A DNA stretch of 64,000 bases, taken from the NCBI GenBank assembly GCA_965228855.1, contig CBDDIJ010000002.1, positions 800,001 through 864,000 on the forward strand, read 5' to 3'. The position numbers and the translations under genes are program-made. How positions within the stretch are numbered: the stretch's first letter is position 1; the number at the start of each line of letters is the position of its first letter. The notes beneath the pieces were generated by a model, which ran no database searches, was not told where the DNA came from, and saw only the letters and a list, made by a program, of their open reading frames with translations. The stretch is from Candidatus Obscuribacterales bacterium (lineage in GTDB: Bacteria; Cyanobacteriota; Vampirovibrionia; Obscuribacterales; Obscuribacteraceae). Below are positions 29,144 to 62,934 of this stretch, in pieces.

Positions 29144-29194
29144 CAGCCTCTCCGTAGCAGTTTCCAGATTTGTGCGTTTGTGGTTTGGTGTTTT

Positions 29195-29246
29195 TGGCAA
29201 CGAGAGAGCGACGATTTATCCAAATTCCGTCAATGCCACGTAGACA
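29195..29246. repeat. 52-bp symmetric core, copy A (left box at 29109; right box degenerate near 29338)
   Basis: TGGCAA-cgagagagc-GACG-atttatccaaattc-CGTC-aatgccacg-TAGACA. Confidence 0.85.
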
Positions 29247-30974: not shown

Positions 30975-31198
30975 CTACTAGATCGTATCGTGATGGTTTC
31001 GTTTAAAAAACCTGATAGCGCCAGTTGTTTCGTGGGACGTGATGTTTAGAGCGATGTTTTTGGCAACGAGAGAGCGACGATTTCTCGTGATTCCGTCATA
31101 GCCAGATAGACAGCCCAGAGCTATCGGAAAGACGTGTGTCTCTAGATGGTCTGTAGGGCATGTTCTAGAGGATTCGTCCTCACTGTGCGAGATAGTAG
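30975..31198. repeat. Symmetric element copy B (core 31061-31112)
   Basis: CTACTAGAT ... TGGCAA-cgagagagc-GACG-N14-CGTC-atagccaga-TAGACA ... AGATAGTAG; core centre equals element midpoint 31086.5. Confidence 0.9.
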
Positions 31199-33738: not shown

Positions 33739-33853
33739 CGGTCTCAGCTGTATGCCTACTAGATGGATTGGTAGAAATTCAAGGGCGGGAAGGGAGTCGT
33801 AGTGATGCTTTTGGAGGAAGGCGTCCCTTAGTTCGGGCGTGAAAAAGCGAGTT

Positions 33854-33905
33854 TGGCTATCTGGCTATGACGGAATTCGAAAATTCCGGCGCTCTCTCGT
33901 AGCCA
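33854..33905. repeat. 52-bp symmetric core, copy C (inverted relative to B; left box CTACTAGAT at 33756)
   Basis: TGGCTA-tctggctat-GACG-gaattcgaaaattc-CGGC-gctctctcg-TAGCCA. Confidence 0.85.
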
Positions 33906-36494: not shown

Positions 36495-36717
36495 CTACTA
36501 TATAAGACAGGACAGGCAAAGCCTGCGATGGCCGACAACGTCAGGATCGCAGGCCCTGGAACGGCAAATCTCCTCTCGTTGTCTATCGCTCGATGACGAT
36601 TTTCAGTAAATCCGGCATCGAGCGATAGACAAAAGGGCCTGGCTCTGAACGGAAAACTTCAGACAGCGTCTCTGGTAGGCACTTTCGAGAATTTTCTTAT
36701 CTTATCCTGTATAGTAG
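36495..36717. repeat. Symmetric element copy D (core 36580-36631)
   Basis: Ends CTACTATATAAGACAGGACAGG / CTTATCTTATCCTGTATAGTAG form an imperfect 22-bp IR; core has a perfect 17-bp IR TTGTCTATCGCTCGATG. Confidence 0.9.
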
Positions 36718-44621: not shown

Positions 44622-44870
44622 CTACTAGACTAGATAGTCTTTATTGAATGCCGTCAAATGAGACGCGGCAAGGCATTTCGGCTTTGCTTCACTAGCAGTT
44701 TCACAAAGACAACTCGTTTTGGCTATCCTGGTATGACGCATTTGGCTAAATCCGGCATTCCAGGATAGACAAAGAGACTTTTGTCTCGACTACAACGGGA
44801 CGTTAAGGACTGAAACGCCCTATCTCCACAGCGTTGCGCGGTTTTGACTGAGCATGACGGCATATAGTAG
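44622..44870. repeat. Symmetric element copy E (core 44720-44771)
   Basis: CTACTAGAC (duplicated at 44593) ... TGGCTA-tcctggtat-GACG-N14-CGGC-attccagga-TAGACA ... ATATAGTAG. Confidence 0.88.
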
Positions 44871-48410: not shown

Positions 48411-48475
48411 AAAGTTCGGTGCATTCGGGCTTCGTGGCATTTTAAGCGTTGTTCTCCACTCGAAAGATGGTTACT

Positions 48476-48527
48476 TGGCTACGCCAGAGCGACGCTTTTT
48501 GCCAAATGCGTCATGCCAGCGTAGACA
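48476..48527. repeat. 52-bp symmetric core, copy F (left box CTACTATAT at 48378)
   Basis: TGGCTA-cgccagagc-GACG-ctttttgccaaatg-CGTC-atgccagcg-TAGACA. Confidence 0.85.
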
Positions 48528-48539
48528 AAAATTGATGAA

Positions 48540-55989: not shown

Positions 55990-57123
55990 ATGCTCAAATT
56001 TACCGTGGCAAACTATCCTGAGTTACTCGGGTACACGAAAGTTTGTCAGGTGTCTGATGAGGACATCTGGCAGCACCTCGTGTCACCGATGACGAAGGGG
56101 CTTTTGGGAGGCATCGTCGAGATTCGACCTCCTCGAGTGATTGAGTCGCTCGAAGGTCTTTTCCCTGGCGACCACGCTGCCAACCTCAACGACCACCGCA
56201 TGTTCGGTGGGCAGCGAGGTTTCGTGCGTTTTCCCTATGTGACCAACTTCTGCAAAACCGAGAATGGTGCGTTCATCGTCAAGCGAGATGGCGTCAAGTT
56301 CGAGGTGTTCTGCTGGTTTGGTGACGTTGAGAAAGGCAAGGGCGAGATGATTCTCAAAGCGGGTCTTCGCGACCGTCGCTTTGACGGCACTGTGCGTGCC
56401 AATGATTCAGCTCTGCTCGATTATCCTTACGACGACCCGATTCTGCACCGTCCGCTCAGTCCGGACTTCAGCTCTCTCGAGTTGTCGATTTACGCTTTCC
56501 TGCCCGGCTCTCGCATCACGGACGTGATCAGCGATGCCGAGTACGAGCGCTTCGTGACGCAGCCCTACACCTTCTGCAACAAGCCCGAGGAATTCATCAA
56601 GTTCTTCAATATGGCTTGGGCGTCGAAGCGTGCTCCTGGTCAGCAGGCTGCTCCGATTCCGGACGTCGCTCCCTTCGTCCTGCGCGGTTTCCAGCGAATC
56701 GCTGAGGACCTGGGCTACGACTTCCTGGAGATGGCTCCGAGCCACTATCACGTTGCTCGCTGGGGACTCGGCGGAGACTACCTCTTCCGCGACCCGGTTC
56801 AGGAGGCTACGTTCAATGCGTTCAGCGAGGGACTGGAGCGCATTCGCGCATCCGGTATGCCGCTGACTCGCTCGCAGCAGTCGTGGGTCTGCGTTGTTCA
56901 GAGCTTGCAGCCGTCCAGCCGTATACCGGTTGCGCTGCGGCTCTCCGGTCCCCAGTGGCCGCAGGACAACATCGGACCCAAGGTGCTCTGGCTCTATAAG
57001 CCGCTATCCGAGCGCGCGAAGGGTTTCAAGCCCGCGCCGCTCCACGTGGCCGAGCCTGCTGTTTCTGTCGCTGGAGGTAGCTCGTCTGCCTCCGGTTTCG
57101 CTGTTGTTGCTCCCAAAGAGTGA
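55990..57123 (+). CDS. Hypothetical protein, tandem paralog 1
   Basis: Shares LRDRRFDGT.RAND, PGSRI, APSHYHVA and WPQDNIGP motifs with the next gene. Confidence 0.85.
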   Translation: MLKFTVANYPELLGYTKVCQVSDEDIWQHLVSPMTKGLLGGIVEIRPPRVIESLEGLFPGDHAANLNDHRMFGGQRGFVRFPYVTNFCKTENGAFIVKRDGVKFEVFCWFGDVEKGKGEMILKAGLRDRRFDGTVRANDSALLDYPYDDPILHRPLSPDFSSLELSIYAFLPGSRITDVISDAEYERFVTQPYTFCNKPEEFIKFFNMAWASKRAPGQQAAPIPDVAPFVLRGFQRIAEDLGYDFLEMAPSHYHVARWGLGGDYLFRDPVQEATFNAFSEGLERIRASGMPLTRSQQSWVCVVQSLQPSSRIPVALRLSGPQWPQDNIGPKVLWLYKPLSERAKGFKPAPLHVAEPAVSVAGGSSSASGFAVVAPKE

Positions 57124-57241: not shown

Positions 57242-58336
57242 ATGGCTAACCACAAATTCTCTAGCCCGAACATCACTGAAATGCTCGGGGTTACTCCTAT
57301 TGCTCTTGTCACGGACGAAGAAATCTGGACGCGGTTGGTCACGCCCCAGGTCAAAGCTTTGCTCGGTGACATTGTTTCCAGCAAGGTTGAACTCCGTGAA
57401 ACCGTCGATGGAACCTTCAATGGCGATGAAGTGACCAACTTCAACGACCACCGTCTCTACGGCGGCAAGGAGGGTTTCAAGTACATTCGTTTCCCCTACA
57501 TCCACTCGCACTACAAGACCACTTACGGCTCGCTCGTCATCAAGCGCGACGGCGCGAAGTTCAAGGTCCTCGGATACGTCGGCAATGTCGAGAAGGGTCC
57601 GTTCGACCTGATCTTCAAGGTCGCTCTGCGTGACCGCCGCTTCGACGGAACGGCTCGCGCCAACGACTGCTCGCTGGTGGACTTCATCGGTTACGAAGAT
57701 CCCACGCTCAACCACACCCTGCAGATTGCGGGGCTGGTCGAGAACGCGACAGCAGTCGAGCTGTCCACCTACGGCTTCATGCCCGGCAGTCGCATTGTCG
57801 ACGCCACTGGTGACGAGCAGCTCGATGAGTTTGTTCGCAATCCGTACCTGTTCGTCGGCAAGCCGAAAACCTGGCTGCGCCTGTTCAAGAAGGCGTGGAA
57901 GTCGAAGCGTTCGCCCGGTCAGAACGGCAACCCCGTTCCGGACATCGCTCGCCTGGTGCCCAACATCGTCGAAGCCATGGCTTTCGAGCGTGGTTACGAC
58001 TACATGGAAAACGCACCCAGCCACTATCATGTGGCTAAGTGGGCGGAGAGCTGCAAGTACTGGTATTCCGACCCGGAACAGGCTGCAGCCCTCAAGGCTC
58101 TGGGTGCCGGTATTGCAAGCGTCAAGGCAGCCGGCGAGACGTTGACTCGTCCGCAAGAGTCCTGGCTTGTCGCGATGCAGAGCCTGCCGAAGGAATTCAT
58201 TCCCGAGAAGTTTTACTTCGGCGGCGCCAAGTGGCCTCAGGACAACATCGGTCCCGAGAACCTCTGGATGTACAAGCCTTTGTCCGACCGCGCCAAAGCA
58301 TCAGCAGCTGCTGTTGCCGCGGCGAGTTCGAAATAG
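57242..58336 (+). CDS. Hypothetical protein, tandem paralog 2
   Basis: Colinear similarity with 55990..57123 over the full length. Confidence 0.85.
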   Translation: MANHKFSSPNITEMLGVTPIALVTDEEIWTRLVTPQVKALLGDIVSSKVELRETVDGTFNGDEVTNFNDHRLYGGKEGFKYIRFPYIHSHYKTTYGSLVIKRDGAKFKVLGYVGNVEKGPFDLIFKVALRDRRFDGTARANDCSLVDFIGYEDPTLNHTLQIAGLVENATAVELSTYGFMPGSRIVDATGDEQLDEFVRNPYLFVGKPKTWLRLFKKAWKSKRSPGQNGNPVPDIARLVPNIVEAMAFERGYDYMENAPSHYHVAKWAESCKYWYSDPEQAAALKALGAGIASVKAAGETLTRPQESWLVAMQSLPKEFIPEKFYFGGAKWPQDNIGPENLWMYKPLSDRAKASAAAVAAASSK

Positions 58337-58344
58337 CGTTTCGT

Positions 58345-58392
58345 GGCGGCGGATTTTCAGGCTCACCCCTGAACTTCCGCCGCCCTTTTTTT
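58345..58392 (+). terminator. Intrinsic terminator
   Basis: GGCGGCGGA/TCCGCCGCC followed by T7. Confidence 0.8.
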
Positions 58393-58571
58393 CGATCCAC
58401 TACTATATGCCGGCGTTGAACATTGTTGGAGGCGGTGTCTCGAAAGGCATGCTGTTACTGCGTCATGCCGATGCGGGTGAGACAGGCGGCAGATTTGCAG
58501 TGTCTTTTGGCAACGAGAGAGCGACGGATTTCGCGAATTCCGTCATAGTGGCGTAGATAGTGTGTTAGGTG

Positions 58572-59534
58572 TCAAGCCAGAGTGCTGTTAAACCTGGAAT
58601 CGAATGGTTGTTTCGAGCGATATACAGCGACCATCATACGGAGAAGTTTGCGTGAGGCGGCACAAACAATTACTTTTCTGTTTTTTCCCTTTGCTGCCAG
58701 TCGTTTAGCGAATTCAGCCACTGGCGGATTAAACCGAGTGGCGGTAAGGGCGGCCATGTACAACATGCTGCGGATCACTGGATTTCCCATCTTCGAAATT
58801 CTGGAACGTCCTCGGACTGAAGAACCGGACTCACGGATCATGGGATTCAGACCACAGAATGCTTCGATCTGGCGCAAGCTCGTAAACGAGTCCATCATCG
58901 ACAGTTCTGAGAGAAACGTGAATGCTGTTCTCCAGCCGACGCCCTTAATCGTCTGGAGTAATTTAGCGTTGCTTTTCAAAGCAGGATTCTCGGAGACCAG
59001 CGTCTTCGCCAGCTTTTCCAGTGTTTGAATTTCGTTGGTAATGAACTTCAACATACGCATCTGAGAGTCTAAAGCGCGCTGGTCCAGGCGTCCCGATTTC
59101 ATTCGATTTGTGACTTGGGTTTTGGTTTTCTTTAGCGCAGCGAGCTCTCTACAAATGTCTCTCAGGGAGCGAATGTCAGGATCCATCGGAGACCAAGGAA
59201 GGGGCTCCATTTTAAAACAAAAGTCGGCGATGATTTCCGCATCGATTGCGTCGGTTTTTGAACGTCTAAATTGGCTCTTGCCGAAGGCGTGTATCAGCGC
59301 TGGATTTACCACGCTGACTCGATAGCCAAGTTTGTGTAGAAACTCCGCAAGGGGCTCCCAGAGCTTCCCCGTAGCTTCCATGCAAAAGTGAACATCCTTA
59401 CCGGATGCTTGAATCCATTTGACTATTCTCTTGAACCCAGCTGGGTTATTGCTGACGTGCAGCTTCGAATTCTTCCTGTCCTGGCGATGGCAGTCTAACG
59501 TCTCCTTCGATACGTCGATTCCAACAAAGATCAT
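58572..59534 (-). CDS. IS110-family DEDD transposase / bridge recombinase
   Basis: VGIDVSK, MEATG, KTDAIDA (D-E-D-D); TIKGVG, GLNP..RESGSS..G..RISKMGN; AGGAG RBS. Confidence 0.96.
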   Translation of the reverse strand: MIFVGIDVSKETLDCHRQDRKNSKLHVSNNPAGFKRIVKWIQASGKDVHFCMEATGKLWEPLAEFLHKLGYRVSVVNPALIHAFGKSQFRRSKTDAIDAEIIADFCFKMEPLPWSPMDPDIRSLRDICRELAALKKTKTQVTNRMKSGRLDQRALDSQMRMLKFITNEIQTLEKLAKTLVSENPALKSNAKLLQTIKGVGWRTAFTFLSELSMMDSFTSLRQIEAFCGLNPMIRESGSSVRGRSRISKMGNPVIRSMLYMAALTATRFNPPVAEFAKRLAAKGKNRKVIVCAASRKLLRMMVAVYRSKQPFDSRFNSTLA

Positions 59535-59563
59535 TGCTCCTACCTCCTGTTGCTGGTTCGCTT

Positions 59564-59796
59564 GGACGCGGATAGAATCTTGTCAGGGCGAGCCTTGTTT
59601 ACACGTGCTAAATCGGTCAGGATTTGCTGTAGATAGTGTTCAGCCTTAGAGGACAAGACAGGAGCGGAAGTCCGAAATCTACGCCTCTGACTTTCTAGCC
59701 GGAGACAAAATACTGGTTTCTTCCGCTCCTCTATCCTCGCGTCCTCGGATAGCCTTGCCGACTGCACGCTCCTGGTCAACAGCAACGTACCAGTCA
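59564..59796 (-). ncRNA. Predicted bridge RNA of the IS110 element
   Basis: Target loop closed by 11-bp IR (59660-70/59720-30) with guides TATTTTGTCT and GGCGTAG; donor loop closed by TCTTGTC/GACAAGA with guides ACACTATCT and ACAAG; transcript ends approximate. Confidence 0.82.
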
Positions 59797-59936
59797 ACAT
59801 CTAACGTACAAGACAAATATGAGGACCGTTTCGCGGTCGAAGTGCAAATCCCCGAGCCATGTGGCTTTGGGCATCTCGAAGGTGTGGAGTTTTATAGTAG
59901 GATTGGCCGGCAGGTTCAAAATCCCGGGACTGCCGC

Positions 59937-60746
59937 TTACTTCGCTGATTCGGCGACTTCTTTGTCGGAACCTTGACCGCCCGAATTAGTTCCACCCTCA
60001 GCGGCGGCATAGCGCACTACAATCATGGTGACGTTGTCCGGGGCGCCGCCATCGAGTGTTGCCTTGAGAAGCTTTTCGCAGGCGTCCTTTGGTGTTTCAC
60101 AGGTGGCTACGATTTCGCCGATGTTTTCGTCCAGAACAACTGTGGATAGACCGTCACTCGACAGAATGAGCCAATCTCCGGGCTTCATCTCTGCTGGAGT
60201 TCTATCAATCTCGACTTTAGCTTTGTGACCGACGCATCGAGTGAGATAGTGGCGGAACGGGCTGTTGCGAAGCTGTTCTTCGCTCATTCGTCCTTGCAAC
60301 ACCATCTCCATGACCACCGAATGATCCTGAGTAAGCACGACGGTTTTGCCCTCGCGAATCAGGTAAGCACGCGAGTCTCCGACGTGCGCGATTTGCAGAC
60401 TTCCATCGGGACAATGGATTGCCGCGACAATTGTTGTACCCATGTCCTTCACTGCAGGGTCGGCTGCTGCTGCATCAAACACATCCTGGTTGGCGTTCGA
60501 AACCGCCTCCACGAGCCATGCTTGAATGGTATTGGCGTCGACCGAATTCGGTTGACGCTCGTTCCATAACTTTTCAACTGCGAGAATCGCAAGCTTGCTG
60601 GCTTTACTTCCGCCTTTCATGCCGCCCATCCCGTCAGCGACTACGAGGAGTCGATTGTCGGAACTCACAAACATATTGTCCTGATTTTCGGTTCTCTTGA
60701 TTCCAGGATCAGTGACGGAGGCAACCTGCCACGAAACTTTAGTCAT
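59937..60746 (-). CDS. PP2C-family Ser/Thr protein phosphatase (Stp1/PrpC-like)
   Basis: TDPG.KR..NQD, VADGMGG, MGTT, AHVGDSRAY, LTQDHS, LSSDGL, GAPDNVT. Confidence 0.95.
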   Translation of the reverse strand: MTKVSWQVASVTDPGIKRTENQDNMFVSSDNRLLVVADGMGGMKGGSKASKLAILAVEKLWNERQPNSVDANTIQAWLVEAVSNANQDVFDAAAADPAVKDMGTTIVAAIHCPDGSLQIAHVGDSRAYLIREGKTVVLTQDHSVVMEMVLQGRMSEEQLRNSPFRHYLTRCVGHKAKVEIDRTPAEMKPGDWLILSSDGLSTVVLDENIGEIVATCETPKDACEKLLKATLDGGAPDNVTMIVVRYAAAEGGTNSGGQGSDKEVAESAK

Positions 60747-61104: not shown

Positions 61105-62358
61105 ATGAATAAAACCTACTTGGCCCTTGGAGCTGTTGCAGTCATCATTGCAGCAGTCGTTGGGCTGACCACGTTTTGGTCGCCTCGTCCCGAGCCCGTG
61201 AGGGTGCCTTCTTATCTTGAGAAGGCCTCTGGCGAGACGATTCTTCCACCAGCCAGTCGTGAGGAGATTCAGCGTCGCGTGCAGTTTGCGCCCGACGGTT
61301 TCACTCGAGAGCGGCTTGTTGTCTTCTTCACCAACGGCGACGTCGGCGTGACTGTGTTCAATCCCGACCGCAGCGCCATTGTGTTCCGCTTCTATCCGCC
61401 GGGTGATGGATTCGACTGGAAAGCGTCTGCGTTTTCCGAGAAGGGCATGAAAAGCCGAGTCGAACGCGCTGCCGATGGAAAAACAATCATGGCGGAACGG
61501 CACTGGTACGAGGACGGAACGCTGAAGCGCCTCGGGCAGCGGCTTCCCGCCGGTGGCTATCAGGTTACCGCTTTCTTCGGCGACGGCGTCACCATGTCGG
61601 AGAGCACCTTGTTCTCCAACACCGGCGTGCTCGAAATCCAGTCGATGTACTACCAGACCGGAATCCTCAAAAGCGTTCTGAAAAGCAAGTACAACGGCTT
61701 GTACAAGGACTGGGTCAGTTATTTCCCCGACGGCAAGAAATCTGCTTTCCACATCGTCGAGGGTAACACCGAGCGTGGTGAGTTCTATTACGATGACGGT
61801 GTGACGGTTCGCATCAAGTTCATGAAAGAGCTCATCTCGCGAAACTTCATGGGCGTTTCGGTGGTGACGGCGGTGTACAACAACGCCGATGGAACGCTCA
61901 ATCACACGCGCGTGTGGGATACGAACAGCATGAAGGTCAGCTATCCCGCGGTAAACGGGAAGCCGGCGTTCACGCAGATCTGGAGATACGTCGACGCGAA
62001 GAAGGCGCAAAACCGTCTCGCTATCGATAACTTTCAGCTCCAGTCGGTAAGCGTTGCCAGGCTTGACGGTATCGACAATGTCGATATTTCGCTGGGCAAA
62101 GATCAGATTCCGGTCGAGATTCGTTTCGTTCGCAAGAACGACAAGGGCGTCGAGGAGCGCATCACGCGCAAGCTTCGAGCCGACGGTACTGTCGAATCCG
62201 AATCTGTGGCCAGCTACTCCGGCGGACGCGTCGAGCGCAAATTCACTGGTGAAGAGGGCGGGCGTGTAATCATTCCTGTCGACTTCTTCGCCGCGGGCTC
62301 GTATGAGGCACCACCTTCGGTGCCATCCGAATTCTCGTATTACCCGGGTGGTTACTGA
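61105..62358 (+). CDS. Membrane-anchored protein with MORN-variant/YwqK-like beta repeats
   Basis: N-terminal TM; repeats WYEDGTLK, YYQTGILK, YFPDGKK, YYDDG, YNNADGTL. Confidence 0.75.
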   Translation: MNKTYLALGAVAVIIAAVVGLTTFWSPRPEPVRVPSYLEKASGETILPPASREEIQRRVQFAPDGFTRERLVVFFTNGDVGVTVFNPDRSAIVFRFYPPGDGFDWKASAFSEKGMKSRVERAADGKTIMAERHWYEDGTLKRLGQRLPAGGYQVTAFFGDGVTMSESTLFSNTGVLEIQSMYYQTGILKSVLKSKYNGLYKDWVSYFPDGKKSAFHIVEGNTERGEFYYDDGVTVRIKFMKELISRNFMGVSVVTAVYNNADGTLNHTRVWDTNSMKVSYPAVNGKPAFTQIWRYVDAKKAQNRLAIDNFQLQSVSVARLDGIDNVDISLGKDQIPVEIRFVRKNDKGVEERITRKLRADGTVESESVASYSGGRVERKFTGEEGGRVIIPVDFFAAGSYEAPPSVPSEFSYYPGGY

Positions 62359-62707: not shown

Positions 62708-62934
62708 CTACTATATGAAGTAGGTCTCTCTCTTCGTTCGAATGTCCCGACCTGGAATGGTTTAGGGCAAAACCTTTGCGAGCGACTATCTCGACTGCCT
62801 ATCCAGGAACGACGGAATCTCGGAAAACCGTCACTCCTGGATAGACACGATGCTCCTCATTCTGAAATTAAATCCCGGAAGTCACGCGCAGGCGGGTACT
62901 GCAGAAGTTTGGTAAATCCTGTCGAATATAGTAG
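62708..62934. repeat. Symmetric element copy H (core 62796-62847)
   Basis: CTACTATAT ... TGCCTA-tccaggaac-GACG-N14-CGTC-actcctgga-TAGACA ... ATATAGTAG; midpoint 62821 vs core centre 62821.5. Confidence 0.9.

Follow-up and report, generated by a model that had tools for sequence, protein, structure and literature searches.

The minus strand at 59564-59796 of the window, by which the whole 64,000-nucleotide stretch analysed here is meant, had been read from its letters as a bridge RNA whose guides match the ends and the insertion site of the surrounding IS110 element. The locus raises the question of whether such an RNA is encoded there, to which site it would direct the element, and how closely the cores of target and donor have to agree. 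It is almost certainly the non-coding left end of an intact IS110 element resembling IS621, hereafter IS-A, from which a predicted bridge RNA likely steers the insertion of a circular form to the tip of a palindromic repeat. The features seen directly, on which this reading is based, are the element boundaries, three identical copies, the guide matches, the covariation of guides and flanks, the repeat target and the catalytic residues.

The IS-A element and its repeat target

58555-59812, minus strand: IS110 element IS-A, both CT cores included (three identical copies with sharp, equal boundaries)
58572-59534, minus strand: intact IS110 recombinase gene, 320 aa (Pfam and PDB matches)
59542-59548, minus strand: Shine-Dalgarno-like AGGAGGT ahead of the recombinase start (from sequence)
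59806-59819, minus strand: left junction of IS-A, with left target 59813-59819, core CT 59811-59812 and right donor 59806-59810
58550-58563, minus strand: right junction of IS-A, with left donor 58557-58563, core CT 58555-58556 and right target 58550-58554
58505-58554, minus strand: remainder of the interrupted 56-bp repeat, whose first bases lie at 59813-59817

The protein encoded by IS-A matches the N- and C-terminal domains PF01548 (98.9 bits, cut-off 29 bits) and PF02371 (84.5 bits, cut-off 21.3 bits). Its relatives in the PDB are IS621 and ISCro4 only, the best match being IS621 8wt6 (E 7e-63; ISCro4, E 2e-59), and it is 40.6% identical to IS621. The catalytic DEDD and serine are kept (D7, E53, D95, D98 and S236, equivalent to D11, E60, D102, D105 and S241 of IS621), and the core-contacting A, G and N together with two of the three wedge residues of IS621 are preserved. 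The recombinase had been called compact in the first-pass annotation, but 320 aa against the 326 aa of IS621 makes no useful difference. Judged by its long upstream and short downstream non-coding ends (276 nt upstream of the gene, 17 nt from the stop codon to the core end), IS-A is a member of the IS110 group and not of IS1111. It agrees with IS621-type elements in the features checked by sequence and is an ordinary new bridge-RNA element; its novelty had been overrated, taking into account that 32,190 bridge RNAs have already been predicted (10.64898/2026.10.21.760802) and that its donor is identical to that of IS621 at 12 of 14 positions.

Seven IS110 genes are present in the genome, three belonging to IS-A and four to a sister element, IS-B. 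Genome comparison shows the three IS-A copies to be identical across 1256 nt, from the left end to the right core. The expectation that other copies would have the same ends was borne out by the two further ones, and all three are flanked by TTTGT-CT on the left and CT-ACG on the right, with a CT core at both junctions (3/3).

The insertion site of all three copies, unremarked in the first-pass annotation, is the tip of a 56-bp imperfect palindromic repeat. This family comprises 417 nhmmer hits on both strands, corresponding to 212 loci, eight of them in the window, where seven more copies lie at 29193-29246, 31059-31112, 33852-33905, 36579-36633, 44718-44773, 48475-48529 and 62796-62847. The sequence TGTCTACG is read at 100 of 363 oriented repeat ends and at 3/3 IS-A insertions, so that even within the repeat family the placement of all three at this exact site has p ~0.02. 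The insertion point of IS-B is the right arm of the same repeat, a short many-copy palindrome that is intergenic at the sites read. REP-type repeats have an associated Y1 (RAYT) transposase gene. This genome, 95% complete, gave no PF01797 match to a Y1 transposase, and the repeat is therefore termed REP-like only.

The repeat is unevenly distributed, 172 of the 212 loci being held by the region C2:1-1,250,000. The G+C content of this region drops from 0.59 to 0.53, against about 0.505 elsewhere, and the motif CTACTATA occurs there 21-62 times per 250 kb, against 0-8 elsewhere; these features could reflect a separate replicon, DNA acquired as a block, or contamination of the bin (5.8%). Near IS-A, two adjacent and related plus-strand ORFs at 55990-57123 and 57242-58336 (377 and 364 aa), both without a Pfam match, end near a WPQDNIGP motif, and a 417-aa plus-strand ORF at 61105-62358, also lacking a Pfam match, has a hydrophobic N-terminus and short repeated beta-type motifs.

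The predicted bridge RNA and its known counterparts

59564-59797, minus strand: predicted bridge RNA in the left end of IS-A, ends approximate (fold, covarying stems, guide-flank covariation)
59760-59796, minus strand: predicted 5' stem-loop, present in free and constrained folds alike
59731-59744, minus strand: 5' strand of the predicted closing helix, pairing with 59564-59575 in the minimum free energy fold
59660-59730, minus strand: predicted target-binding loop (11-bp outer stem, 59720-59730 with 59660-59670; inner hairpin 59689-59700)
59703-59711, minus strand: predicted left target guide, 9 nt (matches to three left flanks)
59679-59685, minus strand: predicted right target guide with two core-pairing bases, complementary to CT-ACGCC
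59677-59678, minus strand: predicted handshake dinucleotide of the target loop, AU, which complements donor positions 6-7
59578-59658, minus strand: predicted donor-binding loop (outer stem, 59652-59658 with 59578-59584, and an inner hairpin)
59631-59639, minus strand: predicted left donor guide, with the same sequence as the final 9 nt of IS-A (58555-58563)
59592-59602, minus strand: predicted right donor guide (59594-59598, likely with 59601-59602) and donor-loop handshake GC (59592-59593)

The four guide segments lie where the first-pass annotation had placed them, reading on the minus strand TATTTTGTCT (59703-59712), GGCGTAG (59679-59685), ACACTATCT (59631-59639) and ACAAG (59594-59598), and the stems that it had drawn are present (59720-59730/59660-59670, 59652-59658/59578-59584 and 59731-59744/59564-59575). 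The match of the left target guide to the left flank also held, but its in-register extent is the 9-mer 59703-59711 and not 59703-59712. Comparison with nine real IS621 copies agreed with the proposed IS621-type layout of left and right target and donor guides around a CT core. The left guides are identical to the left target and left donor, and the right guides complementary to the right target and right donor.

Anchored at the core, the exact matches extend over 7 nt for the left target, 7 nt for the right target, 9 nt for the left donor and 5 nt for the right donor. When the left end was shuffled 20,000 times by dinucleotide, these lengths were reached singly in 1.0%, 1.9%, 0.06% and 31% of cases, respectively, and jointly in none. 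The right donor match is weak by itself, because 31% of shuffles reach 5 nt; this guide likely continues across a 2-nt bulge to 59601-59602, judging from the sequence, and would then be discontinuous like that of IS621. The right donor guide of IS-B is that of IS-A minus the bulge. At the three IS-A sites, the left target guide agrees with the left flank at 7, 8 and 7 of 9 positions, and the right target guide matches outside the core at 5, 5 and 3 of 5. Guide positions 1-2 are mismatched in five of six cases at these sites, so that recognition by IS-A may rest on about 10-12 bases.

The fold of 59560-59760 reaches -71.2 kcal/mol (z -3.67), and none of 200 shuffles was equally good. In the free fold of the IS-A RNA, pairing between parts of the two target guides partly shuts the target loop, whereas the constrained fold displays the 5' stem-loop, the target loop and the donor loop. 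Holding all guides open costs about 14 kcal/mol in IS-A and about 5 in IS-B. The stems are further backed by covariation across relatives: in 19 aligned RNAs, 43 cells are changed on both sides, against 22.9 in shuffled alignments (0/500), and 81.6% of cells are paired, against 40-54% in slid controls. These double-sided changes fall mainly in the target stem (9/11 outer pairs, 2/4 inner pairs). The donor-loop stems are paired in 93-99% of cells with little variation, being partly fixed by the search pattern itself. Conservation is lowest in the closing helix, where 68% of cells are paired (other helices, 78-99%), and RNAalifold favours a different pairing for the closing region. No Rfam match at E up to 1 was obtained in 58300-60000, and no tRNA in the window.

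The layout of the bridge RNA of IS621 from Escherichia coli, including its 5' stem-loop, has been described (Durrant 2024, PMC11208160; Hiraizumi 2024, PMC11208158; PDB 8wt6). IS-A resembles this system in its RuvC-like DEDD and serine Tnp domains, in the position of the predicted RNA in the left end, in the 9-nt left target guide, in the order of 5' stem-loop, target loop and donor loop, in the predicted junction promoter, in the CT core at both junctions and in having a palindromic repeat as target. The 3' 8 nt of the right target guide are common to both, and the handshake dinucleotide AU of the target loop equals A81-U82 of IS621 (PMC13626964). It differs in the left target (TTTGT against ATCAGGC), in the length of the RNA (about 235 nt against 177), in the repeat family and in an extra closing helix around both loops, which does not figure in the descriptions of IS621 available to us. 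Among its relatives, furthermore, target and donor cores are unequal, whereas all nine IS621 copies have CT at both junctions.

ISCro4 (IS622) belongs to the same clade and shares the architecture of IS-A (10.1101/2025.05.14.653916; PDB 9t56); it has been tested and is reported as active in human cells. According to the text of the same study, 18 of 72 orthologues gave any product and one a measurable amount, so a new orthologue cannot be taken to be active outside its host. The seekRNA elements of the ISEc21 type also carry an upstream non-coding region, and their abutted ends form a promoter; the account given for them, in which the repeated bases belong to the element and are not a target duplication (PMC11187229), fits the unequal cores described below. 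ISPpu9 and ISPpu10 are reported in several copies within an intergenic palindrome (PMC12288879; 10.64898/2026.03.19.712850), as here, although in the present genome one repeat serves two sister elements, at a different position for each.

Natural reprogramming, proposed insertion pathway and rival readings

IS-B is present in four copies of 1265 nt with three differences among them (L014-L017, at C2:987644, C2:198470, C5:860952 and C5:1462675), and one further IS-B (L002) was found in another genome of the same genus. Its protein is 52% identical to that of IS-A, it has the same donor, and its scaffold is 84% identical outside the target guides. In IS-B the left guide has the sequence AAAAAGCGT, the right guide complements CT-CATAGCC, and both match its own flanks in 4/4 copies. 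None of the seven IS-A and IS-B copies occupies a site of the other element, which speaks against free cross-mobilisation even though the donor is common to both. A scaffold swap between IS-A and IS-B was considered and set aside, because 75 other pairs have a mean scaffold identity of 68% and reach 87%, a spread that takes in the 84% seen here at 52% protein identity.

A scaffold-pattern search provided 16 metagenome and 12 genome loci, the named ones being mostly labelled Candidatus Obscuribacterales; further loci came from searching 61 and 107 genomes by protein. The 43 tabulated loci were sorted into lineages at 93% scaffold identity, each lineage contributing a single row. Repeated rows and L043, which is degenerate and has no left end, were left out, as was L025, which has no left flank, from the left-flank counts; one-base register slips in L024, L027 and L019 remain in the scores. 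In 22 lineages, 142 of 176 left-flank positions agree with the left guide (mean under permutation 66.0, maximum 102); in 16 lineages, 61 of 80 right-flank positions agree with the right guide (mean under permutation 35.6, maximum 53). Both comparisons used 100,000 permutations, whose p-values are overstated because the lineages are kin. Position 7 of the left guide agrees with the flank in 22/22 lineages. That a change of guide would alter the choice of target, as the first-pass annotation had supposed, has a natural counterpart, guide and flank differing together in IS-B and in the 22 lineages. The left donor guide was built into the search pattern for 39 of the 43 loci and does not count as an independent test of covariation; among three protein-found loci in which it is changed, the right end follows in L048 and does not in L046 or L047. 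In the L019 lineage the right donor and its guide are altered together.

Small variation was also observed within IS-B. The left guide of L014 (C2:198470) has T instead of A at position 5, where its flank also has T; in L002, guide and flank alike have T at both position 4 and position 5. Two of the three differences among the four copies fall within the 51 recognition positions (p ~0.005, post hoc). These single-copy changes were rejected as proof of retargeting and are only suggestive, T being the majority base at position 5 (83/107 sites).

By analogy with IS621, excision would join the right end of the element to its left end, bringing together the two halves of a promoter.

58570-58575, minus strand: predicted circle-junction promoter, -35 half TTGACA, overlapping the stop codon
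59803-59808, minus strand: predicted circle-junction promoter, -10 half TACGTT, 3/6 consensus, 17 nt from the -35 half in the reconstructed junction

The end-to-end junction, as reconstructed, reads TTGACA-17-TACGTT in both IS-A and IS-B, and a promoter scan of the linear form found none. The right ends of the relatives carry TTGAC ahead of the left donor, this motif being part of the right-end test. As regards 59770-59810, in the subgroup with IS-A and IS-B (also L003, L009 and L023, among others) the 5' part is about 21 nt longer and contains TTGAC twice, and in the other subgroup (L004, L024, L033, L039 and L019) TTGAC occurs once. No right-end-to-left-end joint was seen in contigs of public runs over IS-A and one IS-B copy, but such contigs lose rare forms, so the missing joint is no evidence against circles. 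The single run of raw reads had none on this stretch, and no RNA run was among those listed for it, which has no bearing on expression. The top strand of the circle would take its core from the right junction, whether or not excision is single-stranded (10.64898/2026.08.31.748434).

The bridge RNA would then be bound by the recombinase, its left guides pairing with the bottom strands and its right guides with the top strands, as in IS621. The top strands would be cut after the core T (T9) and exchanged (PMC11208158), the exchange being driven by the handshake, which in IS-A, as in IS621 (PMC13626964), would pass from one Watson-Crick pair before to three after. Across 15 lineages, 21 of 60 handshake pairs are formed before exchange and 47 after. 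On the bottom strands the cut would fall between 9* and 10*, facing positions 6 and 5 in the numbering of PMC11208158, and positions 6-9 would give a heteroduplex of 4 bp, whose resolution would favour the top strand. The top-strand bases are those found at positions 6 and 8 of both junctions in 7/7 insertions of this genome and in 9/9 IS621 copies.

One IS-B copy, L016 (C5:862205 region), has at position 7 of its right junction C instead of T, which is the base of the target there; contigs from four public runs, representing no more than two samples and possibly the source itself, carry the variant too. It could be a scar of heteroduplex repair or an ordinary transition. A cytosine at donor position 7 is described as disfavoured in IS621 (PMC11208160), so that this copy may move poorly.

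The most serious rival reading accepts a real IS110 RNA and supposes that the repeat hairpin, read by the protein, weighs as much as the guide in the choice of site. In keeping with it, 7/7 insertions in the genome lie within the palindromic repeat, outer guide positions are often mismatched, and a target stem-loop is presented as a second determinant for ISPpu10 (10.64898/2026.03.19.712850). The two elements, however, use different positions of the hairpin, each foretold by its own guide in 7/7 cases, and IS-A cuts near the edge of the repeat, leaving almost the whole hairpin on one side, so that we consider this reading unlikely, with perhaps one chance in four left to it.

A further view is that the RNA is ancestrally real and that the present copies are inactive, for instance through the pairing of the target guides with each other. 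The shutting of the target loop in the free fold would agree with this, as would the presence of IS-A in only 3/212 repeat loci, but three copies without any difference over 1256 nt, an open frame and the full set of catalytic residues point to recent movement and make the view improbable. As for the guide matches being chance or duplication leftovers at the element ends, the 5-nt right donor match does arise in 31% of shuffles, yet the four never occurred jointly in shuffles, their order and strand are right, and guides change with flanks across lineages; the probability of such an origin is close to nil. A probable guide-directed insertion of IS-A at the repeat tip is the reading retained here.

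Unequal target and donor cores

The left junction of IS-B has the core GT and the right junction CT, in 4/4 copies and in L002. The G of the left core is the target's own: at the corresponding column, the repeat reads GT in 266, GG in 149 and CT in none of its 417 hits (remnants at seven occupied sites included). The empty tandem repeat unit beside L002 also reads GT. Among the 16 lineages for which both junctions are available, the left core is AT in ten, GT in one, TT or AT in one whose register is ambiguous, and CT in four, whereas the right core is CT in 16/16, although the right-end pattern permitted any base at position 8. The target core differs from the donor core (CT) in 12/16 lineages. 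For AT-core elements no unoccupied site turned up, and their case rests on guide covariation.

The guides follow this asymmetry. The eighth base of the left guide equals the left-junction base in 21/22 lineages, the miss being the register-ambiguous one, and the right target guide reads CT in all 14 AT or GT lineages and in 11/12 unequal-core lineages. The left target guide alone would read position 8 of the target, and the right target guide would still read the C of the donor. On counting top-strand pairs at position 8, one would be gained and one lost, hence exchange would be neutral there; by the same count, the G of the right target guide was discarded as a third handshake base. The mismatch at position 8 would add to the known mismatches at positions 6-7 of the heteroduplex, leaving T as the sole common base. 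Against this, orthogonal CT and GT cores are reported to have abolished, in a test with IS621, cross-reactions between two RNAs (10.64898/2026.04.29.721476), but in that test each right guide read its own core, and two pairs would be lost on exchange by the same count.

A residue of the transposase accompanies these cores. At the position of A61 of IS621, whose carbonyl contacts the core-pairing G, glycine is present in 12/12 transposases with an AT left junction and in one with a guide ending in AT, and alanine or serine in six CT elements and one GT element. Glycine at this position would mark the AT-core branch. All 59 glycine rows belong to one branch, so the link between glycine and AT is one event and only a lead, and it was not retained as independent covariation. 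Four proteins within the glycine branch (P0044, P0050, P0053 and P0061) have alanine at this position; their DNA was not found in 401 genomes searched with one protein as query. In the lineage of L019, L040 and L045, proline stands at the A61 position and the right target guide reads TT; the right donor is altered, with its guide matching the alteration, and the cores are TT or AT on the left and CT on the right.

We consider it very likely that unequal cores in the relatives of IS-A are real. That they are both real and hitherto undescribed, with targets AT, GT or TT and a donor that is always CT, is put forward tentatively, at slightly less than an even chance. No statement on natural unequal cores was found in the article texts searched, and an earlier description may exist elsewhere. 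In the published texts consulted, the core is defined as the repeated sequence with CT given priority, and target and donor cores were reprogrammed together (PMC11208160); a less conserved first base is described within a shared core (PMC11208158); and designs relied on sites chosen with matching cores (10.1101/2025.05.14.653916). Pipelines may record merely a one-base core for unequal-core elements.

By itself, IS-A is one among tens of thousands of predicted bridge RNAs. Together with IS-B it forms a natural pair in one genome, a clean control for programmability and cross-talk. If the unequal cores are as described here, the "matching dinucleotide core" rule of bridge editing would be no mechanistic requirement, a simple guide rule for breaking the core match would be at hand, and IS-B and the AT-core elements would be ready test cases. 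The CT preference has been called a constraint (PMC13396178); with guides patterned as in these relatives, so that a CT donor is joined to an AT or GT target, the range of usable sites could grow by as much as about fourfold.
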